Below are positions 12,151 through 61,708 of a DNA stretch of 64,000 nt, one piece after another. Source of the stretch: Okamejei kenojei (taxonomy: Eukaryota); assembly GCA_035221665.1 (NCBI GenBank), contig CM069154.1:14074001-14138000 (forward strand), read 5' to 3'. Position 1 is the stretch's first letter. Every line of letters starts with the position of its first letter. The position numbers and the translations under genes were made by a program. Under the pieces are notes generated by a model that was not told the origin of the DNA, made no database searches, and saw only the letters and a program-made list of their open reading frames with translations.

Positions 12151-12276
12151 CTGGGCAATTCTTGACGAACCGCAGAGCCTGGTCTCTGGGTGCGGGTGTC
12201 TGTGTTTATGTGCGGGATGGTGATCCCTCCTTCAGCTGTGTGCTTGTGTGTCAACACCTGTCCGTGTGGTTTGCAG

Positions 12277-12658
12277 GGCGAGGCTTCATTGTCGGCTTGC
12301 GAGCAGTGGCGGGCGCTGGTCGGCGAGCGCAGGCCGGTTTGCCGGAGCCTCTTCGGCCGGGTGGACGGGCGGCAGGTGCGGGCCGTGTTCAGGGCCGAGC
12401 TCCGGGGCGGCCTGGAGGCAGCGGCCCGGCGATGGGCCTTCGACTTCGAAGCGGAGCGGCCCTTGAAGGGAGACCTCCAGTGGGAAGCCGTGCCGAGCCA
12501 GGACGTCCCGTCCTTCTACCGTCCCGTGTGGGGATCCCAGCAGAGGCAGTTACTCGAGCCCCCGGGGCCGGGGGAGGTAGCCGGGGAGAGGTCCCCGTCG
12601 CCTGAGCAGAAACCAAACTCGCCGCTCAACCGCAAGAGGAAGCAAGCTCTCATCACAG
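12277..12658 (+). CDS. CDKN1A: CDKN1A (p21 Cip/Kip) coding exon 2
   Basis: TTTGCAG acceptor and AG|GTAGG donor. Encodes the Cy motif CRSLFG, CDK-binding RWAFDF..PL.G.LQWE, and the PIP-box start RKRKQALIT. Synteny with RAB44 favours CDKN1A over CDKN1B/C. Confidence 0.9.
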
Positions 12659-12694
12659 GTAGGACAGGCTCAGCGAACTAACCGCCGCTCATGT

Positions 12695-13200: not shown

Positions 13201-14099
13201 ACCATTATTCAAAGTCCAAAGACTGGTCAGCTCGCACGCTTGGTGTACTGGAGCAGTTCCTGCGAACCAACGGCCCTCTCCTCGCCTGGACCTCTTTGTT
13301 TCCCGGGGCGCCACCTGCAATTGACCTTGAAGGTGCTGGAGGCATTGTCCTGGTTCATCCTCGTACTGGCCCACTCCTAGCGCCCGTTATCTCCAGCTAC
13401 CTCCAGGCCCCGATTAGCCATGATGCACCTTTATAGGAATTTGGAGTATTGAGCGCGCTTCTGGTCGCCCAATTACAGGACGAGGGTGGAGGATTTGAGA
13501 GGGTGCAGATTAGAAGAGGTTTATCGGAATGATGCCTAGACCTGCAGGTAGTAACTACCACGAGAAGTAGGACAAACACCGATTATTTTCACGATAGTGC
13601 TGCAAATTGTGGGGAGACCTGATAGAACTATATAAGGTTATGAGCCACAGATGGGGTGAACGGTCAGGAGATTATTTTCCAGAGTTGAAATGGTTAACAT
13701 TTGTGGGATAGTTTGAAGGTGAGCAGGGCATAGTTTAAAGGAGATGGGTGGGGCAAATTATTTTTTGACACAAGGTGGTGGATGTCTGGAACCTGCTGCC
13801 AGGGATGGTGCTGGAGGTAGAATCAACCACATGCAGGCAGAGGAGATGAGTTCAACTTATCATCATGTTTAGCATGGAGATTTTGAGCCGTGGGGCCTGT
13901 TCCTGTGATGTACAATGACTAACCATCTTTCTCTGTTGCTTGAAGGAATCTTGGGGTGGATTTTACAGGTCAGGTCAAAGGCCTATGAAACCTTTGATAA
14001 AACAGATTGATTTCGCACCACCACACTTCCCCGTCTCTCCCAACCAAGTCTTCCCTGGGTTATGGACCCTGCATATACAAACAAGCTATTTCATATCCT

Positions 14100-16330
14100 T
14101 TTCATACCCCCATCCTTGCCGCGTGTTCACCATCCCCCCGGACCTCCCCCTCTCCGACACCGAAAGGTCGGTCCTCAGCAGAGGTCTTACCTTTGTCCCC
14201 CTCCGTCCCCACCTCAATGAGTTCCGCGCCCACCACCACTTGGAGCTCTTCTACCGTCGCCTCCACCTCACAGCGATCTTCCACAGGAAGAAGTCCTCGC
14301 CCCCCCACTGATGATCCCTTTTCCTGTCCCCTCCTCGTGGACCCCCCCTCGTGGCTCTCCGGCTTTAGAACTCTTTATCCAGAACTACTGTCGGGACATC
14401 AACCGCCTCGTCTTCTCCACTCCCTTGTCTCACTCCAATCTCTCCCCTCCCCCCGAACGTACTGCATCGACTCATTCCGTAACAACCCAGACTGGGTTAT
14501 CAAACCCGCCGACAAGGGAGGTGCCGTGGTAGTCTGGCGCGTCGATCTCTACAAAGCGGAGGCCACACGCCAACTCTCAGATACCTCCTCCTACTTACCC
14601 CTGGACCATGACCCCACTGACGAGCACCAGGCCACCATCTCGAGCACCATAACCGACTTCATCAACTCTGGCTCCCTGCACCCCCGAGCCTCCAACCTCA
14701 TCGTTTCCCAGCCCCGCATGGCCCGATTTTACCTTCTCCCCAAAATCCACAAACCTGACTGCCCCGGCAGACCCATTGTCTCTGCCTGATCGTGCCCCAC
14801 CGAACACATTTCCACATACCTTGACGCCATCCTATCCCCCTTTGTTAAATCCCTCCCCACCTTTGTTCAAGACACCTCAGACACTCTCCGTCTTCGCCGC
14901 GCATTCCATTCTCCAGGCCCCACATCCTCTCATCTTCACTATGGACGTCCAGTCACTCTACACCTCCATTACCCACCAGGACGCTCAAAGCCCTCTGGTT
15001 CTTCCTCGACCAGAGGAGCAACCCATACCCGTCCACTGACACCCTCCTCCGCCTAGCGGAGTCCTTACCCTCAACAACTTATCTTTTGGCTCCTCCCATT
15101 TCCTCCAAACACAAGGCGTAGCTATGGGCACACGCATGGGCCCCAGCTACGCTTGCCTCTTTGTTGGGTACGTCGAACAATCCTTGTTCTCGGCGTACCA
15201 GGGCCCCATCCCCGACCTCTACCTCCGTTACATCGACGACTGCTTTGGTGTCACCTCCTGCACCCACACACAACTGACTGACTTCATCCATTTCACCACC
15301 AACTTCCATCTGGCACTCAAATACACCTGGACCATTTCCGACACTTCCCTACCATTCCTTGACCTCACCATCTCTATTGCAGGTGATACACTCCTGACCG
15401 ACATCCACTACAAACCAACTGACTCCCACAGCTACCTGGACTACTCTTCCTCCCACCCTGCTTCCTGTAAGGACTCCATCCCCTATTCCCAATTCCTCCA
15501 TCTACGCTGCATTTGCTCCCAGGATGAGGTGTTCCACACCAGGTCATCACAAATGGCCTCATTCTTCAGAGAACGGGGATTCCCCTCCCCCACTATAGAT
15601 GAAGCTCGCACCAGGGTCTCCTCCATACCCTGCAACACTGCCCTCTCTCCCCATTTCCCCACTCGCAACAAGGGCAGAGTCCCCCTGGTCCTCACCTTTC
15701 ACTCCACCAGCCGGCACATACAACACATAGTCCTTCGCCAGTTTCGCCACCTCCAACGTGACCCCACCACTCGCCACATCTTCCCATCTCCCCCCCTGTC
15801 TGCCTTCTGCAAAGACCGCTCCCTCCGCAACTCCCTTGTCAATTCTTCCCTTCCCTCCCGCTCCACCCCTTCCCCGGGCACTTTCTCTTGCAACCGCAAG
15901 AGATGCTACACTTGTCCCTTTACCTCCCCCCCAGGTCCGACAGAGGTTCACCTGCACCTCCTCCAACCTCATCTACTGCATCCGCTGCTCTAGATGCCAG
16001 CGGATCTATATCGGTGAGACCAAGCGGTGGCTTGGCGATCGTTTCGCCGAACACCTCTGCTCGGTCCGCAATAACCAACCCGACCTCCCGGTGGCTCAGC
16101 ACTTCAACTCCCCCTCCCATTCCGTATCCGACCTCTCTGTCCTGTGTCTCCTCCACAGCCAGAGTGAGCAACACCGCAAATTGGAGGAACAGCACCTCGT
16201 ATTCTGCTTGGGGAGTCTGCATCCTTTGGGCCTGAACATTGAATTTTCTCAATTCTGTTAACCCTTGCTGTCTCCTCCCCTTTCCACCTCTCCCTTAGCC
16301 CTCGGGCTCCTCCTCCTTTTTCCTTTCTCC
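14100..16330 (+). mobile_element. Penelope-like retroelement (RT + GIY-YIG), frameshifted, in CDKN1A intron 2
   Basis: IKPADKGGAVVVW, FYLLPKIHK, MDVQSLYTSI, AMGTRMGPSYA, RYIDD, FLDL, and GIY-YIG motifs NLIYCIRC..YIGET..RFAEH. Confidence 0.92.
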
Positions 16331-18179: not shown

Positions 18180-19995
18180 ATATAACCATATAACAATTAA
18201 AGCACGGAAATAGGCCCCCTCGGCCCTTCCAGTCCGTGCCGACCATTTGTTTTCCCCTAGTCCCATCTACCTGCACTCAGACCATACCCCTCCATTCCCT
18301 TCCCGTCCATATACCTATCCACTTTACTTTTAAATGTTAAAATCGATCCTGCCTCCACCACTTCTGCTGGAAGCTCATTCCACACAGCCACCACCCTTTG
18401 AGTAAAGAAGTTCCCCCTCACGTTACCCCTAAACTTCCGTCCCTTAATTCGCATGTCATGCCCTCTTGTTTGAATCTTCCCTACTCTTAATGGGAAAAGC
18501 TTATCCACGTCAACTCTGTCCATCCCTTTCATCATTTTAAAGACCTCAATCAAGTCCCCCCTTAACCTTCTGCGCTCCAAAGAATAAAGACCTAACTTGT
18601 TCAACCTTTCTCTGTAACATAGTTGCTGGAACCCAGGTAACATTCTAGTAAATCTCCTCTGTACTCTCTCTATTTTGTTGACATCCTTCCTATAATCAGG
18701 CAACCAAAATTGTACACCATACTCCAGAATTGGTCTTACCAATGCCTTGTACAATTTTAACATTACTTCCCTACTCCTATATTCAATGCTCTGATTTATA
18801 AAGGCCAGCACACCAAAGGCTTTCTTTACCATCCTATCTACATGCGATTCCACTTTCAGGGAACTATGCACAGTTATTCCTAGATCTCTCTGTTCCACAG
18901 CGTTCCTCAATTCCCTACCATTTACCATGTACGCCCTATTTTGATTTGTCCTGCCAAGATGTAGCACTTCACACTTATCAGCATTAAACGCCATCTGCCA
19001 TCTTTTCCAAATGGCCCAAATCTCTCTGTAGACTTTGAAAATCTACTTCATTATCCACAACACCACCTATCTTAGTATCATCTGCATACTTACTTATCCA
19101 ATTTTCCACCCCATCATCCAGATCATTGATGTACATGACAAACAACAGCGGACCCAACACAGATCCCTGAGGCACCCCACTGGTCACCGGCTTCCAACCT
19201 GACAAACAACCATCTACCATTACTCTCTGACATCTCCCATTCAGCCACTGTTGAATCCATCTTGCTACTCTGCCAATAACACCCAAACATTGAACCTTCT
19301 TAACCAACCTTCCATGGGGAACCTTGACAAAGGCCTTACTGAAATCCATATAGACAACGCCCACTGCTTTACCCTCATCAATTTCCCTAGTAACCGCTTC
19401 AAAAAATTCAAGAAGGTTTGTCAAACATGACCTTCCAGGCACAAATCCATGTTGACTGTTCCTGATCAGACCCTGTTTATCCAGATGTTTATATATATAT
19501 TATCTCTAAGTATCCTTTCCATTAATTTGCCCACCATTGACGTCAAACTAACAGGTCTATAATTGCTAGGTTTATTCTTTGAACCCTTTTTAAACAATGG
19601 AACAACATGCGCAGTACGCCAATCCTCCGGCACTATTCCCGTTTCTAATGACGTTTGAAATATTTCTGTCATAGCTCCTGCTATTTCAACACTAACTTCC
19701 CTCAATGCCCTAGGGAATATCCTGTCAGGACCTGGAGACTTATCCACTTTTATATTTTTCAAAAGTGTCAGTACTTCCTCCTCTTTGAATCTCGTAGTTT
19801 CCATAGCTACTCTACATTTTTCCCTTACCTCACAGAGTTCAATATCCTTCTCCTTGGTGAATACCGAAGAAAATAAATTGTTCAATATCTCCCCCATCTC
19901 TTTTGGCTCTGCAGATAGCTGTCCATTCTGGCTCTCTAATGGTCCAATTTTATCCCTCATTATTCTTTTGCTATTAATATAGCTGTAGAAACCTT
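18180..19995 (-). mobile_element. 5'-truncated CR1 LINE (ORF2 RT C-terminal part)
   Basis: [34 protein letters not shown] and YADDTK. Tail (CCATATAA)n. Confidence 0.92.
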
Positions 19996-20202
19996 TATAA
20001 CATGAAGGCCAGGGATCGTGATGTACGCTGAAGCTATACAAAGCCCTGGTTAGATCGATCAGTACAGTCAGTTGTTCTGTGAAGTCATGCTTGGAAGAAT
20101 ATACTGGATTTGGAGGGGATTTCCCGGAATTATATCCAGTCCCCTCGAATTAAATTAGGAGAGAATTTAGATTAAGAGGTGATTTGATTACAATTTCAAA
20201 GA

Positions 20203-25508: not shown

Positions 25509-25653
25509 TCAGTGCTGAGGAGACACTCCTGCGCTGCCTGGTGAAGTGGAGTCAGCGGTAACCTCCTCCCGTCTGGTTCCGAGCCCCGACAGCTGGACTG
25601 GGTTGAGGTGTCGGAGGGCGAATGACCTCCACACCAGCGATCTTCCGTCAGTC
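25509..25653 (-). CDS. Unnamed CUB-FN3-UPK3-like gene, tentative last coding exon (cytoplasmic tail)
   Basis: TTTTTTCTAAAG acceptor. Phase 2 gives RTDGRSLVW...SPQH*. No homology support, and other tail exons are possible. Confidence 0.35.
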
Positions 25654-27163: not shown

Positions 27164-27299
27164 CGTCTCTGCCGCCGGTAAGCAACACCCAGCAAGCCGA
27201 GCAGCAGCAACAGGCAGAGGGCGGTGAGCAAGAGGCTGGCGGTCACTGCCGCAGGTGAGAGCGAGCGCTCTCCGTCCCCGAGATCCTGGTACCGGACAA
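27164..27299 (-). CDS. Unnamed CUB-FN3-UPK3-like gene exon 12 (transmembrane)
   Basis: CTCTGCTTCCAG acceptor, GTGAGT donor. Encodes VVRYQDLGDGERSLSPAAVTASLLLTALCLLLLLGLLGVAYRRQRR, a hydrophobic helix plus basic stop-transfer. Confidence 0.88.
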
Positions 27300-27469
27300 C
27301 TGGAAGCAGAGGGACGGCATCGGAGATGAATGCATGAACGATACTTCATTATCACATGTGACATGTCACAATGAAAGTTTTTGTTTTGAACACCATACAC
27401 AAAGTATGCAAAGAGTCACCACGTATGGGGCGCCCACAAAGTTACAAAGTGCTCGGTGCAGCCAACTTT

Positions 27470-28092
27470 AGTAACTTGTATAAAAATTCAACATTTTTGG
27501 ACAGACATTTTTTAAATTATCTCTGAAGTTATCAATAACCAACTGGACCCAGATCCAAAATTAATAATATTAGGATTATCAGAACATAGCATAAACTTTA
27601 CGATAAGCCAGAGACACTTTCTTGATTACAGTCTAATAACTGCGAAAAAATTAATACTAAAAGTTTGGAAAAAACCAGCAGCCCCCACAATTAAAATGTG
27701 GATTACGGAAATGACTGAGACCTTGCATTTGGAAAAAAATAAGATTTGTCTTAATTGACAAACCAAAATTATTTGTTAGAACATGGCCTCCATTTATTGA
27801 ATTCTTAAAAAAGTGAATTGGTTTAACACAAAATCAGGGTTGAAACCTGAGATTGGGATTGGATGAATATTTCTTCTTAGTATCTCCTGGATCTATCTCC
27901 ACAATCTTGTTATTTGTAATTTTTTTTTTCGTCTTTTTCTCTCTATTAGTTTATAGTTTCTCTTATCATTTTCTCTCTTTATCTTTATTCTTTAAAAAAA
28001 TTAAAAAAGTGAAGCTAGGTAAGAAATCTGTAATTAAATTGTCGCTTACTACTATTTGTATACATGCTTCTAATAAAAATATTTAAAAAAAA
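27470..28092 (+). mobile_element. L1 LINE 3' end
   Basis: Translates to the L1 ORF2 C-terminus (KIQHFW..KKLILKVWK..APTIKMW..RTWPPF), followed by a T-rich UTR, AATAAA and an A-tail. Confidence 0.75.
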
Positions 28093-28803
28093 CCCCAAAA
28101 CAAAACAAAGTGCAATTCCAATGGTCCGTCTACATTCGCGGCATGTTCTCCCACACCGGGTCCCTCTTTGATCTCATGGTGGCCCCTCCCCATGCCAGAT
28201 CCTGCTTTGTTCTGGGCACCCCACACGGTGCATCGTCGACCGACCTCCAGCCCATCCGACTCAGGTCGATGGTCGCTGCCCTCCCCGAAAGCCCACCGTC
28301 TGAAGCCCCTCACCAACGTGGGGGGAAGCTTACCTCTATACCCCTCTCTTGGTCAGCTCTGTAATCCTGAGCCAATCCCTTCCCCCTCTCCACCTGCACT
28401 GGGCAGCGAGGGTGGGGACCAGATGTAAGGGGCAGATGGGGTGGCCAGGAGCAGTTTCACTTGTCCTGCGTACCACCCATATCTCTTGCTCCCCTTTCCC
28501 CTGACTCTCAATCTGAAGAAGCGGCTCGTCCCGAAACGTCGCGCACTCCTTCTCTCCAGAGATGCAGCCTGACCTGATGAATTATATTTTTTTAGTTTAG
28601 TTTAGAGATACAGCGCAGAAACTGGCCCTTCAGCCACTGAATCTGCTGCGGCCATTGATCCCCGCACGCTAATACTATCCTACACACACTAGGGACAAAT
28701 TAGACTTATACCAAAGTCAATTAACCTACAAACCTGTACGTCCTTAGATTACCCAAGATTTGCCTGTCGATAAGAACCTGGGTGGATAATATAAAGTCAT
28801 TAC

Positions 28804-28880
28804 CTGTTCTGGTGGTGAATGGCTCCGACCATTGGCTGAAGAGTATTGGTGACCCGTCACTCACAAGCACGTAACACAGC
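28804..28880 (-). CDS. Unnamed CUB-FN3-UPK3-like gene exon 11
   Basis: Phase 2/1 with AG/GT. Encodes RLCYVLVSDGSPILFSQWSEPFTTRT, matching the UPK3-type 'YR.KY.L.....WS.PI' segment. Confidence 0.85.
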
Positions 28881-29319
28881 CTGAGATCCACAAAAGAAAA
28901 AGCCAGCATTACTCCTCAACCACAGGCCGAATGGGCAGGAAACCCTATGTAGAAACACAAACTCAGCAGGTCAGGCAGCATCTCTGGAGGTCTTGGATAG
29001 GTGACTTTTCGAGTCAGGATCCTTCTTCATGGGCTATCAACGGAATCAAGGGATAGGGGGCGAAAGCAGGAACGGAGTGCTAATTTTGGATGATCAGCCA
29101 TGATCATATTGAATGGAGGTGCTGGCTCGAAGGGCAGAAATGGCCTACTCTTGCACCTATTTCCTATGTTTCTATGTTTCAGACTGGAGTCCAAAGAAGG
29201 GTCCTTCCACAAAACATCGCCAATCCATATCCTCCAGAAATGCTGCCTGACCCGCTGACTTCCTCCAGCATTTTGTGTCCTACGCAAGATTTCTTGTGTT
29301 TTCAGGAAACCCTACAGTG

Positions 29320-29625
29320 GGCAGCACAGCGTTAGAGTTGCTGCCTTACGGAGCCAGACACCCAGGCTCCATCCTGCCCACGGGTGCTGCCTGTGGGGAG
29401 ATTGTACATTCTCCCCGTAACCTGTCAGGGCTTTCTCCAGGAACTCTGGTCTCCTCCCACACTCCAAAGAGGTGCAGGGTTGTAGGTTAAATGGCCTGGT
29501 ATCATTGTAAATTGTGCCTGGTGTGTGCAGGACAGCTTTAGTGGGTGGGGATCGCTGGTCGGCGCGGACTCGGTGGGCCGAAGGGCCTGTTTCCGTGCTG
29601 TGCCTCTAAACTAAACTAAACTAAA
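29320..29625 (+). mobile_element. HE1-like SINE
   Basis: tRNA-like head, central domain, GGGCCGAAGGGCCTGTTTCC and (TAAAC)n tail. Confidence 0.75.
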
Positions 29626-31454
29626 TGTTGGCGGACACACTCACCTGCCACCGGATGGAACGAACCAGAGGTAGTCTTGCCAAGAATTGCTGATGCTAGT
29701 CAATAGGGGGACCTCCGTAATTGTGGGCCCTTGGACTAATTACATCAGGAAGGGTCCACAGAGATATAAGACCAACCACAACCACTCACTTGACCCCTCA
29801 ATTGTGTTACAGGCCATGTGGACAGTCAGTGACGGCTCTTTCACCAGCACTGACCCGGATCCCAACAGGCACGATCCGGAGTCTCAAGTGTTGTCACCTG
29901 ATGAACTCTCCAAAGAGCTGGACTCGGATTGTGTCCTGGAATAAGGAACGCACTGTGAGCCCTTAAAGGATGACCATACCGCCTCGCAAACCAAGTCTCT
30001 GGGCCGTATTGGAATGGCGATGTTTTTGGGTATGTGAATTTTCCCTGCGTTCGAATGAATAAACCCAGTGCACTGTATCAGAACAGCTTTCTTCGCTGTT
30101 CAGGAAGCTCATGGCTGATCTTTTATAATAAAAACAGAGAATGCTGGAGATATTTATCAATCTCTGATTTTTATGGGGAGCAGGCAGGAGAATGGTGTTG
30201 AGAGGGAATGATAGATCAGCCACGGACTAGACTTGATGGACCGAATTGCCTTATTCTGCTCCGAGAACTTGCGAACCGATGAAAGTGCCGTGAATGCTCG
30301 GCAGGTCAGGCAGCGTCTGTGGGAAAAGAAGCCATCAGCGTTTCCAGTCCACGGCCCTTCTTGGCTGTGAACGCCTATGTCGATGGAACTATGTGCATTT
30401 GTTTCCATAGATTTTCTTTCCCGGTAAATAATATATTTAGTTTTGTTTAAAGATGAATCTAAGTTTCACTTTGTGGTTAATTGCAGGGTGCGACCCCAAC
30501 TGCTTCTCTCTGCTGGCAAAGCACTCTTACACTTTGCCCCAATCTCACTTCTGCCTCTCCGCCCGCCCAGCGCCAGTACTTAGCATTGCGGCTATGAGTG
30601 AAAGAGCAACACCCTGGATGTAACTCCTTCCCCTTCAGTGACCGGCACTAGACTCTCATAGCCACAAGGCAGGCAGTTTGCACATCAAGGTCACAAACCT
30701 CCCCAAAGCAGAGGAGAATGCAGAACTCTCACAACACTGAAAGCCACTTCCCCCTCAACCAATCCTCTACATTATGTTGCGCAGTTCTGGCGGCTTTCAT
30801 TGTAAAACATGGGCCGGATTTCGGCCCGGATGCTCTTGCACGTTGTTGAATGGTTACCAATCCGGATGCATTTTCCGGCTCCACAATTGGCAACCTCAGG
30901 CTGGAAATTTGCAGGCCCTGAGGTAGATTAAGGAGCAAGGAGACTGCTTTTTGTATGAACTAAAAAGATCTGCATTTAAGTTGGGTATGCTAAAGTATTC
31001 TAAGACGCTGCGTTCATACTGTGGAAAGTTTCAGGCTGTTCCATTGAAAATGTGAGCTCATTTTAAATGTTCTCTGGATACTCACGAGGGGGCTGGATAG
31101 GGCTCTTATAGCGGGGTCAGGGGATATGGGAAGAAGGCAGGAACGGGATACTGATTGGGGATGATCAGCCATGATCATATTGAATGGCGGTGCAGGCTCG
31201 AAGGGCCGAATGACCTACTCCTGCACATATCGTCTATTGTCTAAAGTATCCCTGACAGAAGGTATCCCTGGAAGCTGCCAAAATGTATCACTTGGCTTTT
31301 TAAAGTTTAAACCCCAGTGTGATCCTCATCCGCCAACCTGCCCTTTCAAAGAACATCACTATCACTATCACCAACATCACTGTTGGCTGCAACTTCAATT
31401 TTTGAGTCATCTGTCCAATTAGAAATTCTGCTTGAGGCCACTAATCCACCTTTA

Positions 31455-32024
31455 GGGCCTGTCCCACTTGGGCGACCTAATATGCAAGTTCTGGCGAGTT
31501 TGCCCTCGACTCACACTCGCAGCATGCTCGACACGAGGTCAAAGGAGGTCTTCGTAACTCTCCTTCATGCTCGAGAGTGGTCTCCGCATACTTGAGGCCT
31601 TAGCTAGGTCGCAGCAATTTTTCAATATGTTAAAAAATGCACGCGAGTAAAAAAAGGTTGCCATGGAAAAAATCGATACTTTTTTTACTCGTAGGTTTAG
31701 TCGTAATAGGTATAGGTAGATTGTAGTAGGTTAGCATGTTAGTCGTAGGTAATCGAGGATAGTCGAAGGTAGTTGTAGATAGTCTTCATCATGGTCGAAG
31801 GGAGGTCGAAGGGAGATGGAAGGAGGTCGTCTTCACTCTCCACTATTCGGTGTCCAATTTTCCCGAAGTTCATCGTAGCTAGTCGTAGCTAGTCGAAGCT
31901 GGTCTTCAACATAGTTGAAGGAGGTCGAAGGAGTTCTTCTACATGGTCGAAGGAGGTCTTCAACATGTCATTTTTTCAAACTCTTCTAAACTCGCCAATT
32001 AGGTCGCCCAAGTGGGGCAGACCT
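31455..32024. mobile_element. PIF/Harbinger-type MITE
   Basis: About 27-bp TIR, GGGCCTGTCCCACTTGGGCGACCTAAT vs ATTAGGTCGCCCAAGTGGGGCAGACCT. TTA at the left flank; internal GTCG(A/T)AG repeats. Confidence 0.7.
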
Positions 32025-33563
32025 TTTAAAGCAGCGGTGCTGGTACTGTTTCTTGGGGATTGCTCTGTGGATCTTAGTCTGATTGGGAAAATGACCACTC
32101 ACCACCAATATTCGGAACAGCTACTTAAAATAAAAACAGAAAAGGCTGTAAACACTCAAAAGGTCGGGTTGCATCTGTGGCGAGAGAAACGGAATATTTC
32201 AGGTCAACAACCCTTCATTAGACTCTCCGCAGGTGCTGCTTGACCTGCTGAGTGTTTACTACTTTACTATTATAATAAATGCACTAAGTCTCTTCATCAC
32301 CTTATTGATAAGGCTCTTTCCAAATAATCTGGACATGCCTGTCTTTCCTGAAGCATTTACTGATACCTGTGAATCACCTGTCCACCTAGGCCTGTCTACA
32401 TAATGGTTCTGGTACCTGCTCTATAGTTTCCCTGTGGCTTCCTTTTGTCAATATCACTTGCATGTAGCACAAAGCTTCAAAAACTACAGTCCAAATACCT
32501 GATAATTCTAATTAATAATTACCACAAATGTGATTAATCACTTACTATATCATGAATTCATGAATACATTCTGTGGTTATCTTTTGCCAACCCATTTTCC
32601 CGTTCCTGTTCCTGTTTCCATGGTCATTTTCTTTCTTTTTGTCCAGTTCTTAAACCTTTCTTTGTTCCCTGTTTGGTACTTTGCTGTGGATCTATCCACT
32701 GCTTCCCTCTGGAGGTGAGTATCTCCACAAGAAGATTCCGCCTCCTGGTCTTTCATGCTGGATGTACTGACTGTATCCCGAGACTGTGCAATGGGGAGCT
32801 CACCAAACTCCATACCCAAAGGAAGGAGACTTCAACTTCCTCAAAAGTACAGACATTCGGACACCCTCTCATGCCCTTGTAGACATCTGCTTGATAATCA
32901 GGAGACTTATCTGCAAATCCTGAGTGTCTCCGTAGCTCTAAGGCACCGTTCTTCACTTTGCGCTGTTCCCGCTCTGTCTGATGCATGTCATGATTCCCCA
33001 ACGGTCATTCCCATTCAGTGGCAGAACACCCGAGTGGCTGGAAGAGTGTTTAGTCCCTTTAAGAGCTAGTGCTACTCAGTGACCAGTGTAAGAGTTAGCA
33101 ACACAGTGCAGCACCTTGGCACAGCTGGTAGCATTGCTGCCTTGCAGCACCAGGGACCTGGGATCGATCCTGACCTCGGGTGCTGTCTTTGTGGAGTTTG
33201 CACGTTCAACCCACGACCGAGTGGGTTTCCTCTGCATGCTCTGGTTCCTCTCACATCAATAAGGGCATGTGGGTTTATAGGTTAATTTGTCTCTGTAAAA
33301 TTGCCCCTAATGTGTGTAGGGAATGGATGAGGAAGTGGGCTCATGTTGGCATGATCGGAGTGGACTTGGTGGGCTGATGGGGCCTGTTTCCATGCTGCAT
33401 CTTTCAATCAGTTAATCAATCAACACATCATCCTGGACAAGGCCCAGGTGGTTGGGGGGGGGGGGGGGGGTAACTCCACACGCCCCCCCCCCCCCCCCCC
33501 CCCACCCCCCCCCCCCCCATTGCCTGGCAGAGCCTGGAGATCCCGAGCGACCGTTCAGCCTAC

Positions 33564-33795
33564 CTGTAGGTTGTGCTGCTGCGGAGCGGCCCATTACATG
33601 TCCAGGTGGGGGAGCACGTCTCCTCACCTCCGACCTGGAATATTCCAAAGTCAGTGAGGGGATCAGACTTGTCCGTGGAGGGGTAGCACGGGAGGTGACG
33701 ATGGACCAAGTGGACACCCCTACGACCGATGTCCGTGTGCCAGTACGTGGCGTTCCAGTCACCAGGGACCATCTCAGAGGGCAAAGCCACTCCAG
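33564..33795 (-). CDS. Unnamed CUB-FN3-UPK3-like gene exon 10
   Basis: Phase 1/2 with AG/GT. Ends FQVGGEETCSPTWTCNGPLRSSTTYR, the uroplakin-3/receptor-PTP juxtamembrane signature (VG...C....CNGPL....YR). Confidence 0.88.
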
Positions 33796-35147
33796 CTGGA
33801 AGAAGTAGAGGTTACAGGTTAGGGTGGAGTTGAACAGTGAAGGGCATTGTTGGGATGGGGTGGACGGGTTGGCAGTTTGATGTTCAGGGGTGGACCTCGT
33901 GGTAGGTAGGGCAACAGGGGCTGGCAATGGGTGACAGGGCAGGAACGTTTTGGTGGGTTGCTGTGTTTGGGGTGGGGAAATTGTCCGAAGGTCCAAGGGT
34001 GGGAGGGGAGGTGATGAACAGTCTCATACTAGGGGGCGAGTCAATGAACAGTCTTGGAGAGGAAAGGGTAGTTGGTGAACAGTCTTGAGTTAGTTTAGAG
34101 ATACAGCGTGGAAACGGGCCCTTTGGTTCACTGAGTCCGCACTGCCCACTAAGCACCTGTTCACTAGTTCTATGTTATCCCAGTTTTGCATCCTACACAC
34201 TAGCGGTAATTTGCAGAGGCCAATTAAACTATAAACCCACATATCTTTGGAATGTGGGAGGAAACCCATGCAGTCACAGGGAGAATGTATACACTCCTTA
34301 CAGATAGTCAGGATTGAACCTGGATCTCTGATGCTGTAAGGCAGCAACTCTACCACTGCGCCACCAAGCCACTTGGTGTTGTGAGGCAGAGTCAGTGAAC
34401 AGTATAGGGGTTGGGGGGAGGGGGTTAGTGAACAGTCTCAGGGTGGGGAGCGGGATCGCAGGCTGGCTGCTCCGATGCCCACCCTACTGATCAAGTGTAG
34501 GCCTCTGGGCCTATCTCAGGACCATGCTCACGGCCAGCGTGGACCAGCTGCTCGAGCTGGAGGACATTGGGCTCAGAAGCAATGCACTAAGTCACAAAAA
34601 CCTGTAGTAATTCAGTGGGTCGGGCAGCATCTCTGGAGAAAAGTATTAGGTGATGTTTTGAGTCGAGACCTTTTTTCAGCGTGAGAGTCAGGGGAGAGGG
34701 AAACAAAGAGACATAGAAGGTACATAGAACAAATGAATAAAAGATATGCAAAAGCAACGATAGTCAAGGAAAGGTGGAGTCCACAATGGTCCATTGTTGG
34801 CTGTGGACGGTGATAATGAGTTATACAGACAGTGAAACTCAACAGGAGGGCAGTGAAACTAGTACGACGACTGGGGTGTGGCGGGAGGGCGTAAAAAGCT
34901 GGAGTAACTGTGGATCAGGCAGCATCTCTGGAGAAAAGGAATAGGTGACTAAGTCACAGCTGAGCTGAGGACTGCTTTCAGCAAGCCAGTCAGAGTCAAA
35001 TACAGTCTCAGAATATTGGTTAGGTTGATGCCGCAATCCTACCAAGGTGTGGAGTTTTACTGCAGGAATGTGATGCTCTGTTAAAAAGTACCCTGATTGG
35101 ATGTATAAACAAAGAACTGGAGTAACTCAGCGGGTCAGGCAACATCT

Positions 35148-35497
35148 TATAACCATATAAAATTACAGGAGAGCACTCAGACCATACCCCTCCATTCCCT
35201 TCAAATCCACTTTAGTCTTAAATGTTATCGATCCTGCCTGCTGGAAGCTCATTCCACACAGCCACCACCCTCTGAGTAAAGAAGTTCCCTCATCCCAAAA
35301 CAATTCTCATGTCATGACCTCTTGTTTGAATCATCCCTACCCTCAATGGGAAAAAGGTATCCACGTCAACTCTGTCTATCCCTTACATCATGTTAAAGAG
35401 TCCCCCCTTAGTAAAGACCTAACTTGTTCAACGTAACATAGGCTGGAACCCTGGCAGTAAATCTCCTCTGTAATTTTGACATCCTTCCTATACTAGG
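35148..35497 (-). mobile_element. CR1 3' end copy with many small internal deletions
   Basis: Colinear with 18180-18700, but about 350 bp instead of about 520 bp. Confidence 0.75.
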
Positions 35498-36361
35498 CGG
35501 GAAAGTTCAGTATGGGAGGTGAAGAACTGGAGGCAAGAAAAGTCCAGAACCAATCGAGTCTGGCTACAAAAGACTTCAGGCAGGGTGGTAAAACGACTAG
35601 GCTGGAGGAAGGAGGAGCGGAGTGTAAGTAGAGGTTACTTAAAATTTGAGATTTCAATGTTCATAGCGCTGGTTTGAAAGTTGCCCAAGCAAAATATTGG
35701 GTGCTGTTCCTCCAAATTGCGTGTGGCTTAGCTCTGGCTCAGCATTATGGTTGTGTGGGTCGGTTCAATAACCTGATAGTTGTAGGAAAGCAGGCGTTCC
35801 TGAACCTGCTGGTGTGGGGTTTCAGGCTTCTGTGCCTCCTACGTAGCCTGTAAGGTAGTGCTGGAGTACGGGGTGATCGCTGGTCGACTCAGACTCGGTC
35901 GGCAGAAGGGTCTGTTTCTGTGCCGTATCTCGAAAGTCAGGTTTATAACTTCATAAGTTATACGAGCAGAATTAGGCTAGTTGGCCCATCAAGTGTACTC
36001 CACCAGTCAATCATGGCTGATCTATGTTGCGCTCTCAACCCTTCCCTTGCCTTCTCCACATAACCCTCTGACACCCATACAAGTCAAGAATCGATCAATC
36101 TCTGCCTTAAAATTTTCCATTGACTTGGCCTCCACAGCCTTCTGTGGCAATGAATTCCACAGATTCACCACACTCTGACTAACGAAATTCCATCCCGTCG
36201 TTCTAAATGTACGTCCTTTTATTCTGAGGCTATGGTCTCTGGTCCTAGATTCTCCCACTAATGGAAAGAACTAAAGTCTCAAGTCTAGAAGGAGGGTGGA
36301 AAGTCATGCCCACTACAACCTCTCCCTCGGTGGATCGATGGTCTTCTCCAGACCCATCTAC

Positions 36362-36517
36362 CTGTACCCTCAGCCAGCAGCACCCACACCGAGAGGTTCT
36401 GCCTCAGCTGCCCAGCAATGCGGTCCAACAGGGTGCAGGAGGGAAGTTGGATCAGGAGGGAGCTGGATCGGACCCTGTACCTCAGCTCCTGGGCCAGGAC
36501 TGGAGTCATGGATGGTG
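36362..36517 (-). CDS. Unnamed CUB-FN3-UPK3-like gene exon 9
   Basis: CTCTCTGTCTTTCAG acceptor, phase 1/1. Encodes APSMTPVLAQELRYRVRSSSLLIQLPSC..LSVWVLLAE, resembling the UPK3 N-terminal 'P.LA....T..L..P.C...VWLVVA'. An alternative donor lies 6 nt earlier. Confidence 0.8.
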
Positions 36518-37587: not shown

Positions 37588-37771
37588 CTGCTTCTCCTGG
37601 TCTACACCTTGGGAGTCGGATTTTCACCTGGTTGCTTGGCGGGCCTTCTCCTTGAGTGTTGACCACAGTGACGGTGATGTTGTAGTCCTGGTCAGCCCTC
37701 AGGTTCCTCAGAGTAACGTATCTCACCTGGGTTGCTTTGACCTGCATTCCTGCATCAGTCACGATACGCAC
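37588..37771 (-). CDS. Unnamed CUB-FN3-UPK3-like gene exon 8 (FN3-2 C-terminal half)
   Basis: Phase 0/1. Encodes VTLRNLRADQDYNITVTVVNTQGEGPPS. Confidence 0.9.
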
Positions 37772-38873: not shown

Positions 38874-38995
38874 CCGATATCCAATATCACTGCTGCCGGC
38901 TGCCTTTGGGGAGTTCCAGCTCACAAAGACAGTGTCGCACTCTACTTCTATCGTGCTCAGCTCCACCCTAGGGTGCAGAGTCTCACCCAGAGAAT
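38874..38995 (-). CDS. Unnamed CUB-FN3-UPK3-like gene exon 7 (FN3-2 N-terminal half)
   Basis: Phase 1/0 with GTAAGC donor. Encodes EVECDTVFVSWNSP....DIGYR. Confidence 0.88.
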
Positions 38996-40712: not shown

Positions 40713-40811
40713 AGCTTGTGGTGGTGAAGTTGACCAAGCAACCAATGTCCTCTTGCCCACAGCTCATCAGAGCAACAACATAAGCAAAGTACGAGGTGGA
40801 AGCCATCAGCC
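40713..40811 (-). CDS. Unnamed CUB-FN3-UPK3-like gene exon 6 (FN3-1 C-terminal half)
   Basis: Phase 1/1 with GTAAGT donor. Encodes GLMASTSYFAYVVALMSCGQEDIGCLVNFTTTS. Absent from the ORF track. Confidence 0.85.
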
Positions 40812-41625: not shown

Positions 41626-41814
41626 CGGTCAAGTTGTATTCAGCTTTGCCGGTGACCAGTCGAGCTCCTGCCAGTGTTGTCTGCTCACCGTACGGCCCAT
41701 GATACACCTTGTAGGTGACGTTGCGCTGGGCTTTGGTCACTAACGGGTCCCACCTCAACAACACCGTGGTGGGAGTCAGCTTCACAACCTGCACTCGACG
41801 AGGTTCCTTGGGAA
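41626..41814 (-). CDS. Unnamed CUB-FN3-UPK3-like gene exon 5 (FN3-1 N-terminal half)
   Basis: Strong polypyrimidine acceptor, phase 1/1. Encodes PKEPRRVQVVKLTPTTVLLRWDP..VTYKVY. Confidence 0.9.
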
Positions 41815-42484: not shown

Positions 42485-42712
42485 CCACAGTGTATCTGAA
42501 GCGGAATCCTTTCAATTGGATAGTGTTGTCCGAGTGGAAATGTACATAGACCTGGAAGCCAAAGGAGAAGGGAACTCGGACTGTCTTCCCACGCCTCAGG
42601 ATGCCAGTGAGGGACTCTTGTACCGTGCTGCTGTCCAAGTGGTTCCTGATCCCGATGTTGACCCAGTCATGGTCCTTCTCCAGGTGGAAATCCTCCACTC
42701 GGATCACTACGG
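42485..42712 (-). CDS. Unnamed CUB-FN3-UPK3-like gene exon 4 (CUB C-terminal part)
   Basis: Encodes EDFHLE..DWV and VYVHFHSDNTIQLKGFRFRY, with GTAAGT donor. Acceptor is 42712 or 42706 (same phase). Confidence 0.88.
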
Positions 42713-44379: not shown

Positions 44380-44514
44380 CATCCACGCTGGTGTTCTTGG
44401 TCAGCTTGAGGAACCAGTAGGCGTCCTGTTTGGCTGGGTAGGGCTTTGGGTAGTTGGGGCTCTGGATGAATGCTGAGTGCAAGGAGCACTGGCTGTCAGG
44501 CAGGCACAAGGGGG
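44380..44514 (-). CDS. Unnamed CUB-FN3-UPK3-like gene exon 3 (CUB N-terminal part)
   Basis: Phase 1/1 with GTGAGT donor. Encodes IQSPNYPKPYPAKQDAYW. Confidence 0.9.
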
Positions 44515-44763: not shown

Positions 44764-44838
44764 CTGTGCAGTTCTGGACATCTTGATCAACCTGGTCGCT
44801 ACCAAAGCCCCCATTGCCACACTCACTGCGAGTCACGC
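44764..44838 (-). CDS. Unnamed CUB-FN3-UPK3-like gene exon 2
   Basis: TGTTTCACAG acceptor, GTAGG donor, phase 1/1. Encodes GVTRSECGNGGFGSDQVDQDVQNCT. Confidence 0.65.
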
Positions 44839-46291: not shown

Positions 46292-46364
46292 CTAGAGTGA
46301 ATGTTGCCAGCCACAGACACACATTGAGATGGCACACAGCGCTGAGTTTCGAGATGGTCTCCAT
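46292..46364 (-). CDS. Unnamed CUB-FN3-UPK3-like gene exon 1 (signal peptide)
   Basis: AGAATGG start context. Encodes METISKLSAVCHLNVCLWLATFTL, with G|GTAAGG donor in phase 1. A TATA-like CATAAATA lies about 45 bp upstream. Confidence 0.8.
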
Positions 46365-47274: not shown

Positions 47275-50200
47275 ATAGAAACATAGAAACATAGAAATTA
47301 GGTGCAGGAGTAGGCCATTCGGCCCTTCGAGCATGCACCGCCATTCAATATGATCATGGCTGATCATCCAACTCAGTATCCCGTACCTGCCTTCTCTCCG
47401 TACCCTCTGATCCCCTTAGCCACAAGGGCCACATCAAACTCCCTCTTCATTATAGCCAATGAACTGGCCTCAACTACCCTCTGTGGCAGAGTTCCAGAGA
47501 CTCACCACTCTCTGTGTGAAAAAAAGTCTTTCTCATCTCGGTCTTAAAGGATTTCCCCCTTATCCTTAAGCTGTGACCCCTTGTCCTGGACTTCCCCAAC
47601 ATGCAGGAACAATCTTCCTGCATATAGCCTGTCCAACCCCTTAAGAATTTTGTAAGTTTCTATAAGATCCCCTCTCAATCTCCTAAATTCTAGAGAGTAT
47701 AAACCGAGTCTATCCAGTCTTTCTTCATAAGACAGTCCTGACATCCCAGGAATCAGTCCGGTGAACCTTCTCTGCACTCTATGGCAATAATGTCCTTCCT
47801 CAGATTTGGAGACCAGAACTGTACGCAATACTCCAGGTGTGGTCTCACCAAGACCCTATACTACTGCAGTAGAACCTCCCTGCTCCTATATTCCAATCCT
47901 TTTGCTATGAAAGCTAACATACCATTCGCTTTCTTCACTGCCTGCTGCACCTGCATGCCTACTATCAATGACTGGTGTACCATGACACCCAGGTCTCGCT
48001 GCATCTCCCCTTTTCCTAATCGGCCACCATTTAGATAATAGTCTGCTTTCCTGTTTTTGCCACCAAAGTGGATAACCTCACATTTATCCACATTATACTG
48101 CATCTGCCAAACATTTGCCCACTCACCCCAGCCTATCCAAGTCACCTTGCAGCCTCCTAGCATCCTCCTCACAGCTAACACTGCCCCCCAGCTTGGTGTC
48201 ATCCGCAAACTTGGAGATATTGCCTTCAATTCCCTCATCCAGATCATTAATATATATTGTAAATAGCTGGGGTCCCAGCACTGAGCCTTGCGGTACCCCA
48301 CTAGTCACTGCCTGCCATTGTGAAAAGGACCCGTTTACTCCTACTTTTTGCTTCCTGTTTGCCAGCCAGTTCTCTATCCACATCAATACTGAACCCCCAA
48401 TGCCGTATGCTTTAGGTTTGTATACTAATCTCTTATGTGGGACCTTGTCGAAAGCCTTCTGGAAGTCCAGATACACCACATCCACTGGTTCTCCCCTATC
48501 CACGCTACTAGTTACATCCTCGAAAAATTCCACAAGATTCGTCATTCATGATTTACCTTTTGTAAATCCATGCTGACTTTGTCCAATGATTTCACCACTT
48601 TCCAAATGTGCTGCTATCCCATCTTTAATAACTATCAGTTTCCCCACTACCGATGTTAGACTAACTGGTCTGTAATTCCCGGTTTTCTCTCTCCCTCCCT
48701 TCTTAAAAAGAGGGGTTACATTTGCTACCCGCCAATCCTCAGGAACTACTCCAGAATCTAAAGTGTTTTGAAAGATTATCACTAATGCATCCACTATTTC
48801 CAGAGCTACTTCCTTAAGTACTCTGGGATGCAGCCTCTCTGGCCCTGGGATTTATCGGCCTTTAATCCATTCAATTTACCCAACACCACTTCCTGACTAA
48901 CTTGGATTTCACTCAATTCCTCCTTTGACCCGTGGTCCCCTGCTATTTCCGGCAGATTATTTATGTCTTCCTTAGTGAAGACGGAACAAAGTAGTTATTC
49001 AAGTGGTCCACCATATCCTTGTTCCCCATGACCAACTCACCTGTTTCTGACTGCAAGGGACCTACATTTGTTTTAACAAATCTCTTTCTCTTCACATAAC
49101 TATAAAAACTTTTGCAGTCAGTTTTTATGTTCCCTGCCAGTTTTCTTTCATAATCTATTTTTCCTTTCCTAATTAAGCCCTTTGTCCTCCTCTGCTGGTC
49201 TCTGAATTTCTCCCAGTCCTCTGGTATGCTGCTTTATCTGGCTACTTTGTACGCATCATCCTTTGCTTTGATACTATCCCTGATTTCCCTTGTTATCCAC
49301 GGATGCACTACCTTCCCTGATTTATTATTTTGCCAAACTGGGATGAACAATTTTTGTAGTTCATCCATGCAGTCTTCAAATGTCTTCCATTGTGTATCCA
49401 CCGTCAACCCTTTTAGAATCAATTGCCAGTCAATCTTGGCCAATTCACGTCTCATACCCTCAAAGTTACCTTTCTTTAAGTTCAGAACCATTGTTTCTGA
49501 ATTAACAATGTCACTCTCCATCCTAATGAAGAACTCAACCATATTATGGTCACTCTTGCCCAAGGGGGCACGTACAACAAGACTGCTAACTAACCCTTCC
49601 TCATTACTCAATACCCAGTCTAAAATAGCCTGCTCTCTCGTTGGTTCCTCTACATGTTGATTTAGATAACTATCCCGCATACATTCCAAAAAATCCTCTT
49701 CCTCAGCACCCCTGCCAATTTGATTCACCCAATCTGTATGTAGATTGAAGTCACCCATTATAACTGTTTTGCCTTTGTCGCACGCATTTCTAATTTCCTG
49801 TTTGATACCATCCCCAACTTCACTACTACTGTAGGTGGCCTGTACACAATACCCACCAGAGTTTTCTGCCCCTTAGTGTTTCGCAGCTCTACCCATACCG
49901 ATTCCACATCCTCCAAGTTAATGTCCTTCCTTTCCATTGCGTTAATCTGCTCTCTAACCAGAAACGCTACCCCACCTCCTTTTCCTTTCTCTCTCTATCC
50001 CTCCTGAATATTGAATATCCCTGGATGTTCAGCTCCCAGCCTTGGTCACCCTGGAGCCATGTCTCCGTGATCCCAACTATATCATAATCATTAATAGCTA
50101 TCAGCACGTTCAACTCATCCACCTTATTACGAATACTCCTTGCATTGAGACACAAAGCCTCCAGCCTTGTTTTTACAACGCTCTTACCCCTTATACAATT

Positions 50201-50345
50201 ATGTTGAAAAGTGGCCCTTTTTGATTTTTGCCCTGGTTTTGTCTGCCTGCCACTTTCACTTTTCACCTTGCTCCCTATTGCTTCTACCCTCGTTTTACAC
50301 CCACCTGCCTCTCTGCTCTTGTACCCATCCCCCTGCCACATTAGT
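47275..50345 (-). mobile_element. CR1 LINE with near-complete ORF2 (endonuclease + RT), frameshifted
   Basis: [51 protein letters not shown] and FADDTK. Tail (CATAGAAA)n. Confidence 0.93.
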
Positions 50346-50399
50346 TTAAATGCTCCCCGACATTCATATTCATTAGCATTATATATTCATTAGCATTAT

Positions 50400-50820
50400 A
50401 TTTGGTAGTGTTCACAAAATTATCATCATACGCAGCACTCTTGCCACTCATGTGACCCCCTGGGGCTGATATCCCTTCCCTCATTCGATACCTGTACCAT
50501 ACCTGTCTCCAATGTGTAACAGCGGAAAGGCCCTCGACTGTGGTCCTCCCCACAGAGCCTTGGTGTTGGCTGCACCAAGCTCCAGACTGTCCCTCAGCAC
50601 GCACTCCTGCAGTCCAGAGTGGGCCAGTCGGCAACATTCCCTTACAGACATCTCACCCTGCTGGGAGATCAACATGTTTCTGGAAGACTAAAGAGCGTCT
50701 TTCACCGAATTGATGACCTTCCAGCAGCACTATATGGCTGTCTCTGAATGTGTCCCTGGGAACAGTCCGTAAATTAGAGAGTCCTCTGTTACGGAGCTGT
50801 TTGGGATAAACTGTGAGAAG
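50400..50820 (-). mobile_element. Tx1-like LINE 3' fragment
   Basis: Translates as LIYGLFPGTH..CWKVINSVKDAL..ECCRLAHS.LQE.VLRD, resembling a Tx1 ORF2 C-terminus. Confidence 0.55.
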
Positions 50821-61225: not shown

Positions 61226-61480
61226 ATCCATATTCTCCAGAGATGCTGCCTGACCCACTGAGTTACTCCAGCATTTTGTGTCCTTTTGTGTAAACCAGCA
61301 TTTCTACACCGACATTGTTCCTTTACTAATCGCCCCTCGGCATATTTATGGAAAGCCCTTTTTAAATTCTCATTTCCTTGACATAATTCGATGAATAATT
61401 TGCATTGAACCAGGCCAGTTAGCTCAGCTCCCTTTCTCTGTCGCCCAGAAAGGTCGGAAGAGAAGGATCATCGCGTTGAG

Positions 61481-61708
61481 ATGGCAGAGCGAGATAACAT
61501 GAATCCCAAGGCCCATAAGTTTTCCCGGGACAGCCGGAGGACGGCGAGGCGCAGGAGGAATTTACCTGAATCCCAGGAGCCCAAGGTCGAGGAGGACAAG
61601 GGGGAGAAGCAGACCTTCGGGGAGAAGTTCGTCCTGGAGAAGGTCCATGAGTTCTTCGAGGAGTGCGGCGTGGGTGAGAGGGGCTTTATCACACGGGAAG
61701 ACATGCAG
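61481..61708 (+). CDS. RAB44: RAB44 (EF-hand large Rab) first coding exon
   Basis: HEFFEECGVGERGFITREDMQ resembles the RAB44 EF-hand (FFQDCGAKERGFVTREDL). Acceptor at 61448, CAG|GTAAG donor, and CDKN1A synteny. Confidence 0.82.

Follow-up and report, generated by a model that had tools for sequence, protein, structure and literature searches.

A CUB- and FN3-bearing gene of cartilaginous fish in the UPK2/3-R3 juxtamembrane superfamily, likely a long-armed branch of the uroplakin family

The UPK2/3 uroplakins and the R3 receptor protein tyrosine phosphatases (PTPs; as receptors, PTPRs) share a juxtamembrane domain that is recognised by a C-X(n)-CNGPL signature, four cysteines (C1-C4) and introns in phases 1,1,2,1,2 (PMC5242461). 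The proposed origin of uroplakins from PTPRQ is based on shared exons, shared cysteines and two tunicate genes, and Ciona genes that encode FN3 repeats but lack a phosphatase have been likened to an intermediate stage (PMC5242461). Uroplakins have a conserved pre-membrane stretch (PMC2173100, PMC3922775), a motif that mammalian UPK3c is without (PMC3922775), and R3 PTPRs by definition have no CUB domain (PMC5242461). Here, we describe a gene within a 64,000-nt stretch of the 2.76-Gb genome of Okamejei kenojei (contig C24, CM069154.1, 14074001-14138000; hereafter the window, in whose coordinates positions are given unless a contig is named). The gene encodes a CUB domain, two FN3 domains and the shared juxtamembrane domain, and likely belongs to a long-armed branch of uroplakins not previously described. 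An initial annotation, made from the sequence alone, had reported a uroplakin-3-like module behind FN3 repeats at 27164-36517 and read it as a possible intermediate between PTPRQ-type receptors and uroplakins.

The window gene resembles the UPK2/3 uroplakins, among which UPK3a (PDB 8JJ5 chain C) is closest by profile, in its four-exon cassette with phases 1,1,2,1,2, in C1-C4 and a WSxP motif, in a long transmembrane (TM) exon, in a tail of ~50 residues on one last exon and in the lack of a phosphatase. Unlike theirs, its protein is extended at the N terminus by ~370 residues comprising CUB and two FN3, and it has an eroded pre-membrane motif and no tail tyrosine motif. With PTPRQ, PTPRB and PTPRJ it shares the placement of FN3 directly before a long juxtamembrane domain and the same intron phases, and with PTPRQ also CNGPL and 12-residue FN3 B-C loops. 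Unlike R3 PTPRs, however, it has no PTP domain, has a CUB domain and a longer stalk, and falls on the uroplakin side of trees; unlike PTPRQ, it has only two FN3s and no match to the PTPRQ terminal FN3. The Ciona 'Nocat' PTPRQ-like proteins also combine FN3, a long juxtamembrane domain, a TM helix and a short tail without a phosphatase, but in the published passages compared they show neither WSxP nor a uroplakin pre-membrane motif, and FN3 domains are the only ones described for them (PMC5242461). Because these Ciona genes have been described, an FN3 architecture without a phosphatase is not new as an idea (PMC5242461). For a vertebrate phosphatase-less FN3 protein with uroplakin hallmarks we found no published account, and a literature search with subscription journals largely outside its coverage returned no description of the window gene.

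All seven motif strings searched lie on the minus strand within 27164-36517 and, as the initial annotation had claimed, fall into four open exons with AG/GT ends (exons 9 to 12: 36517-36368, 33795-33564, 28880-28804 and 27299-27164), of which 27164 and 36517 are exact ends. The introns around these exons are in phases 1,1,2,1,2, and the intron after 33564, a phase-2 intron, interrupts the Arg codon of Y-R, again as annotated. The exons belong to an intact 13-exon gene on the minus strand (46364-25509) with one open frame of 1845 nt (614 aa) and splice ends that are canonical AG/GT apart from one AAG acceptor choice. From N to C terminus, the protein comprises a predicted signal peptide, CUB, two FN3 (FN3a and FN3b), the UPK2/3-R3-PTPR juxtamembrane domain, a TM segment and a ~50-aa tail, with eight N-glycosylation sequons and a single hydrophobic TM stretch by hydropathy. 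CUB and both FN3 are each spread over two exons, and domain boundaries are in phase 1 throughout. In alignments with the Hemitrygon and Mustelus orthologs, exon 1 (46292-46364, with the ATG at 46364) matches from the first residue on, and its position, this alignment and a predicted N-terminal helix point to a signal peptide. There follow a short linker with two Cys (exon 2, 44764-44838, phase 1-1), the two parts of CUB (exon 3, 44380-44514, Pfam CUB E 6.7e-5; exon 4, 42485-42712, Pfam CUB E 0.005, 75% identity to Mustelus), of FN3a (exon 5, 41626-41814; exon 6, 40713-40811) and of FN3b (exon 7, 38874-38995, phase 1-0; exon 8, 37588-37771, phase 0-1, Pfam fn3 E 1.7e-8). The exon 4 acceptor at 42712 agrees with the orthologs, and one at 42706 is likewise in frame. 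The juxtamembrane domain begins in exon 9 with C1 (an alternative donor at 36362 is in frame, adds two residues and fits the orthologs equally well), continues in exon 10 with C2, C3, C4 and CNGPL, and ends in exon 11 with a uroplakin-type WSxP. Exon 12 encodes the stalk and a predicted TM helix and ends in phase 2, and exon 13 (25509-25653) encodes the cytoplasmic tail and the stop and is matched by the Mustelus C-terminus in tblastn (42% identity, E 0.001).

The window gene is common to sharks, rays and a chimaera. A HMMER search with one exon against 1.84 billion representatives gave five matches, four of them orthologs, from Heptranchias, Mustelus, Rhincodon and Hemitrygon; the fifth, a frog repeat protein, was dropped as spurious. 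The full Mustelus protein as query gave four matches among 7326 candidates and added Mobula and Callorhinchus. All orthologs are 'uncharacterized' or without a name in the databases. The window model is 55-63% identical to four near-full-length orthologs, and the best-conserved part is CUB (identical to Mustelus at 85/112 positions and to Callorhinchus at 67/112), compared to 86/151 and 62/151, respectively, for the UPK domain. No orthologs were found outside cartilaginous fish, a weak test because the one-exon search missed Callorhinchus and the word-indexed search requires shared five-residue words. A pseudogene or chance chain of exons was ruled out by the open frame and the orthologs, and a mis-assembled fusion with a neighbouring uroplakin by the same layout in the Mustelus, Mobula, Hemitrygon and Callorhinchus models. 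One CUB exon, or both, is left out of the annotated Mustelus isoforms X2-X4, and FN3a is missing from the Callorhinchus model, which suggests variable arm length or gaps in the gene models. Three sequencing runs from the same species as the window behaved like DNA and yielded repeats only, which speaks neither for nor against expression.

Four ordinary uroplakins were located in the Okamejei genome, on C19, C26, C29 and C37, and were named after the named database proteins in the tree. Of the three R3 PTPRs located, two are on C19 and one is on C18; we take them to be PTPRQ, PTPRB and PTPRJ from motifs, together with published PTPRQ rows and same-strand PTP exons downstream. The intron comparison that the initial annotation had called for showed phases 1,1,2,1,2 in the window gene, the four uroplakins and the three R3 PTPRs alike. 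A genome search with one ortholog protein returned only the window gene and a C19 paralog, besides repeat matches of the query's mispredicted N-terminus. A looser pattern scan for further copies of the domain gave 46 matches, compared to 106 in a reversed control, and 30 loci plus candidates on C38, C23 and C4 were without it. Two side observations concern these relatives: the third domain exon of UPK3b (C26, about 18.552 Mb, minus strand) has a one-base frameshift that reflects either a broken allele or a fault in the assembly, and at C19:16.38-16.40 Mb there is another PTP gene, on the same strand as the PTPRB-like gene and about 100 kb before it.

The window gene belongs to the UPK2/3-R3 juxtamembrane superfamily but lacks two of the features expected of strict uroplakins and both of those expected of R3 PTPRs. 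It has the phases, the cysteines and the CNGPL signature of the shared domain (PMC5242461): the cysteines of the family have counterparts at residues 396, 455, 479 and 485 (C1-C4), although C1 is absent in the ray orthologs from Mobula and Hemitrygon, and C3-X(n)-C4-NGPL lies in the exon 33795-33564. When a six-ortholog profile was compared with the PDB, uroplakin 3A was the best of 119 matches at E<=10 (E 1.2e-10, profile positions 413-563). An ectodomain-only profile scored UPK3a of this genome at 32 bits, PTPRQ at 27 and UPK3b at 26, compared to a maximum of 4.9 bits among 350 shuffled control sequences. From the ortholog profile and the shuffled control, the match is beyond chance. The initial annotation had proposed homology to the UPK3 and R3 PTPR juxtamembrane region, to be abandoned should no significant match appear; the family signature and the uroplakin 3A match support the proposal, while Pfam gave no uroplakin or PTP_tm match (PF07353, PF18861) in exons or full-length orthologs. 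Two single-exon searches were insensitive: the PDB gave nothing relevant, and the word-indexed search gave 0 matches among 14 candidates and missed known orthologs too.

Further characters of the domain and its surroundings point in different directions. WSxP in the third domain exon is a uroplakin-side character, and the TM exon of 136 nt compares with 127-133 nt in UPK3a, UPK3b and UPK2a of the genome and 88-106 nt in PTPRQ, PTPRB and PTPRJ. CNGPL is exact in the window gene and PTPRQ, whereas UPK3a and UPK3b of the genome have CNAPL. The conserved pre-membrane stretch of 12-19 residues is found in none of five TM-reaching sequences (window, Mustelus, two Mobula and Callorhinchus) but in all four uroplakins of the genome; it is present in 75 of 79 database uroplakins, a circular count, as these sequences were retrieved with it. 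Strict UPK2/3 proteins have the long domain only, with an ectodomain of <~200 aa, whereas CUB and two FN3 bring that of the window protein to ~510 aa. An AlphaFold model from six sequences (pLDDT 40) was unusable. A second model, of the Callorhinchus ortholog with 42 sequences including 35 uroplakins, reached pLDDT 68, and in Foldseek FN3 tandems led its matches while uroplakin 3A, at rank 34 (E 1.8e-7), had the highest TM scores listed, a partly circular result. For the CUB/FN3 arm, the ESM Atlas returned CUB/FN3 fragments below 0.9, which serve as leads only.

As the initial annotation had stated, FN3 and the UPK3 domain occur here with no visible phosphatase: two Pfam FN3 lie directly upstream of the domain, and the last exon bears the stop and encodes a tail with neither a phosphatase nor a tyrosine beyond the TM end. 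No PTP exon was found within 100 kb. A PF00102 scan of the genome, in which 150 of 184 candidates were scored, gave 136 matches, on C24 only at 28.5 and 41.2 Mb, and none of 12 PTP exon queries matched the 264 kb around the window, compared to seven of the 12 at the PTPRB control locus. The catalytic exons that the initial annotation had considered as a sign of an ordinary receptor PTP are thus absent from these 264 kb, and an ordinary receptor PTP was ruled out by the stop-bearing last exon together with the lack of PTP exons nearby. The gene has neither the single cytoplasmic PTP domain nor the FN3-only ectodomain of R3 receptors, since its CUB scores above the Pfam cut-off in the window exon and in the orthologs.

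The closest paralog of the window gene in this genome, in a sister relation to it, is a giant EGF/CUB/FN3 gene at C19:34,620,001-34,778,000 on the plus strand. This gene has at least 44 EGF-like exons in the 200 kb examined, repeated CUB-like units and extra FN3s, and its 5' end lies beyond the region examined. Like the window gene, it has CUB-like exons upstream and ends in the eight-exon FN3a-FN3b-UPK-TM cassette, with one GC donor, identical phases and exons of 189/99/128/187/165/241/80/133 nt compared to 189/99/122/184/150/232/77/136 nt in the window, the two FN3a exons being equal. The two proteins are 30% identical over 404 aa (E 1e-47), and no PTP exon was found near the giant gene. Unlike the window gene, it has the EGF-like exons, the repeated CUB-like units, a near-canonical pre-membrane motif and a multi-exon tail. 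The motif, in the TM exon, is one residue off the uroplakin form; this exon has a weak Pfam Uroplakin_II match (E 0.037), whereas the window TM exon has none, and the motif region scores 36.9 bits with a mixed-family profile. Because the motif is near-canonical in the giant gene and eroded in the window gene, their common ancestor probably had it, and the window gene would have eroded it. The tail includes at least two phase-2 exons and an S-Y-S-T stretch recalling the UPK3a phosphotyrosine motif described in PMC6340209. The literature search found no description of the giant gene. PHD and bromodomain exons, which we take to be TRIM24/33-like, lie downstream of it on the minus strand (C19:34.81-34.82 Mb). 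Database models from gar, Coregonus and Clarias look like fusions of two uroplakin units or of one uroplakin with the gene next to it, and the one-residue motif variant of the giant gene recurs in the gar model.

In the domain phylogeny that the initial annotation had called for, the window domain grouped with uroplakins rather than with PTPRQ, PTPRB and PTPRJ (bootstrap 94-98). Trees were built in IQ-TREE under LG+C20+F+G4 with posterior mean site frequencies (PMSF). A 14-row tree placed the window lineage and uroplakins opposite the three PTPRs with support of 95/95 (87/84 without the TM exon). A 37-row tree, with 24 of the 79 database uroplakins picked for spread, columns >=40% filled, the lamprey insert removed, and Hemitrygon and one Mobula left out, supported the uroplakin side at 98/96 (97/98 when the TM exon was omitted). 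Once the giant gene was included, it paired with the window lineage at 100/99, and support for the uroplakin side was 94/92. The best trees place the window lineage within a uroplakin polytomy, without support (72/30 to 82/67). Approximately unbiased (AU) tests gave p 0.28, 0.30 and 0.38 for compact uroplakins as a clade without the window lineage, 0.25 for the window lineage with UPK3a, and 0.10 and 0.029 for the window lineage with PTPRB and PTPRJ. On these alignments the uroplakin side is favoured for the window lineage, though not proven. The lamprey (Petromyzon) protein, of 558 aa, has a low-complexity insert of ~300 residues within the juxtamembrane domain and no tail.

For the window gene, which occurs in sharks, rays and a chimaera, the best explanation, and one that we consider somewhat probable, is that it is a member of a long-armed uroplakin branch and encodes a cell-surface protein for recognition or adhesion that has no catalytic activity. 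How it might act can be outlined from its domains, in a mechanism to which we give nearly an even chance. CUB may be the binding module for an extracellular partner, as its standing as the best-conserved part suggests, and the two FN3 would be a spacer that keeps it away from the membrane. At the membrane, the uroplakin domain with its disulfides would determine where the protein sits and which lateral contacts it makes, probably in apical microdomains by analogy with uroplakins. C1-C2 and C3-C4 are likely disulfides, as proposed in PMC5242461; in pig UPK3a a disulfide C47-C110 was seen, and contacts between uroplakins in the pig structure involve the C1-C2 disulfide together with a Trp (PMC10560298). 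The tail of 50 residues has no enzyme and no UPK3a-type tyrosine motif, and therefore any signal would go through partners. Cartilaginous fish retain urea, and the initial annotation had suggested tetraspanin partners in urea-retaining epithelia. Obligate pairing of the window protein with UPK1a or UPK1b seems doubtful to us, and a barrier complex of this kind in those epithelia unlikely. The position of the gene on the uroplakin side would agree with it, as would the finding of orthologs only in cartilaginous fish and the retention of WSxP and C1-C4, whose C1-C2 disulfide, with the Trp, lies at uroplakin contacts in pig (PMC10560298). However, the restriction to cartilaginous fish comes from a weak search, and the pre-membrane motif is absent from all five TM-reaching sequences while the four ordinary uroplakins of the genome keep it. 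Motif erosion leaves tetraspanin binding possible, since mutation of the conserved motif left UPIIIb-UPIb pairing intact (unpublished data cited in PMC2173100) and mammalian UPK3c is without it. Non-mammalian uroplakins have been linked to fertilisation, not plaques (PMC6340209), so a urea barrier is just one candidate role.

The window gene lies among neighbours that we take, from motifs and Pfam, to be CDKN1A-like, SRSF3 and RAB44-like: a CDI-family exon at 12166-12678 (plus strand; Pfam), an RRM gene about 19-26 kb left of the window, and the start of a RAB44-like gene at the right end (61449-61708 onward, plus strand). In human, CDKN1A and RAB44 are adjacent, and the window gene sits between the two. 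Each of the contigs C18, C19 and C24 has CDI-family genes (on C24 inside the window) as well as RAB44-family exons, which fits paralogy by genome duplication. The pair of window and giant genes probably arose by whole-genome duplication, after which the window copy would have ended up with a short arm and an eroded pre-membrane motif. On C19, a pair of CDI-family genes lies at 48.80 and 48.83 Mb, about 30 kb apart on opposite strands. Decayed reverse-transcriptase retroelement fragments, which we take to be LINE- and Penelope-like, flank the window gene at about 13900-16300 (plus), 18200-20200 (minus) and 47500-50400 (minus).

One interpretation of the origin of this lineage, plausible to us if short of probable, is that the window and giant genes survive as the lineage sister to all compact uroplakins and kept PTPRQ-like FN3s after phosphatase loss and motif gain. 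Treating compact uroplakins as a separate clade costs only 0.45-0.47 log-likelihood units (p-AU 0.30, 0.38), and a single loss of FN3 would explain the compact forms. Of 13 FN3 counted, 12 have the 12-residue B-C loop that is typical of PTPRQ, compared to nine residues in PTPRB, and the FN3 intron types 1:1:1 and 1:0:1 are both present in PTPRQ's mix (PMC5336234). The FN3a intron position recurs in two of nine split PTPRQ FN3s examined. However, 12-residue B-C loops are frequent in other FN3 proteins, and the best trees nest the window lineage among uroplakins, albeit without support. The PTPRQ terminal FN3 differs in intron position and is outside the 14 best matches of either FN3 profile; the best PTPRQ match is an internal repeat, at 37 bits compared to 27 for an unrelated FN3-rich open reading frame on C7. 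The CUB and EGF modules show that shuffling occurred anyway, and the lamprey uroplakin has the motif without a Pfam FN3. Alternatively, exon shuffling may secondarily have fused the cassette of a compact uroplakin, perhaps one of UPK3a-side origin, behind a CUB/EGF/FN3 arm, the PTPRQ-like layout being convergent, a reading that we hold tentatively. Phase 1 at all domain boundaries would permit such a fusion, and the giant gene, with its EGF-like matches, displays active module duplication. The motif T-[YFHP]-x-x-T-x-[GA]-G-x-x-G-x-Y, picked once the alignment had been seen, occurs in 4/7 orthologs and 13/20 UPK3a but in 0/17 UPK3b, 0/42 UPK2 and other uroplakins and 0/3 R3 PTPRs; the window gene and the ray orthologs, however, have a degenerate form of it, and it was not seen in the giant gene. 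The grouping with UPK3a is not rejected by the AU test (p 0.25) but is favoured by no tree, and secondary fusion requires FN3 to have been regained at its ancestral position. An independent phosphatase-less PTPRQ offshoot, like Ciona 'Nocat', with uroplakin likeness due to convergence and long-branch attraction, appears improbable. Grouping with PTPRQ exceeds 0.05 in four of the five AU tests and the exact CNGPL is shared with PTPRQ, but the sister gene has the uroplakin pre-membrane motif, with its profile score and weak Pfam match, and the stalk length, WSxP and bootstrap values are those of the uroplakin side.

Taking the first of these interpretations further, the window and giant genes may form a living vertebrate stem lineage of uroplakins, phosphatase-less, with the hallmarks gained, PTPRQ-derived FN3 kept, duplicated at a vertebrate genome doubling and still present in cartilaginous fish; this we regard as possible, at somewhat below an even chance. 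Several results weigh against our best explanation, a long-armed uroplakin branch. Of five AU tests, only one rejected a grouping with PTPRQ at p<0.05 (0.023, 0.066, 0.051, 0.071, 0.071), and the ectodomain-only profile ranks PTPRQ between UPK3a and UPK3b. The ESM Atlas puts the domain nearest PTPRU/PTPRT/Dep-1 clusters rather than uroplakins (PTPRU-type Fn3, 0.91; leads only). The R3 side of the trees consists of three sequences, all taken from one genome and in part on long branches, so that long-branch attraction is possible, and the trees have no invertebrate outgroup. The whole-genome duplication rests on two neighbour families, whose members on C19 lie 6 and 14 Mb away from the giant gene. 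Of the intermediate proposed in the initial annotation, the homology, the FN3 domains and the lack of a phosphatase stand. The claim of a literal intermediate fares less well: a position as sister to all uroplakins is compatible with the AU tests, but the lineage is nested in the best trees, has a CUB, has FN3s that do not match the PTPRQ terminal FN3 and is represented in the window by the reduced sister of a giant mosaic gene, and the Ciona genes are a precedent.

A vertebrate FN3-bearing lineage beside uroplakins is a kind of data point that has been missing, and with it the order of domain losses becomes testable. If the stem-lineage reading is true, the order of events would be fixed as PTP loss, motif gain and FN3 loss. 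The pair on C24 and C19, without and with the pre-membrane motif, could serve as a natural experiment on the role of this motif, a question left open in PMC2173100. These findings are of interest chiefly to specialists in uroplakins, tetraspanins and receptor evolution. The window and giant genes further indicate that large adhesion-type arms can be anchored by the uroplakin unit.

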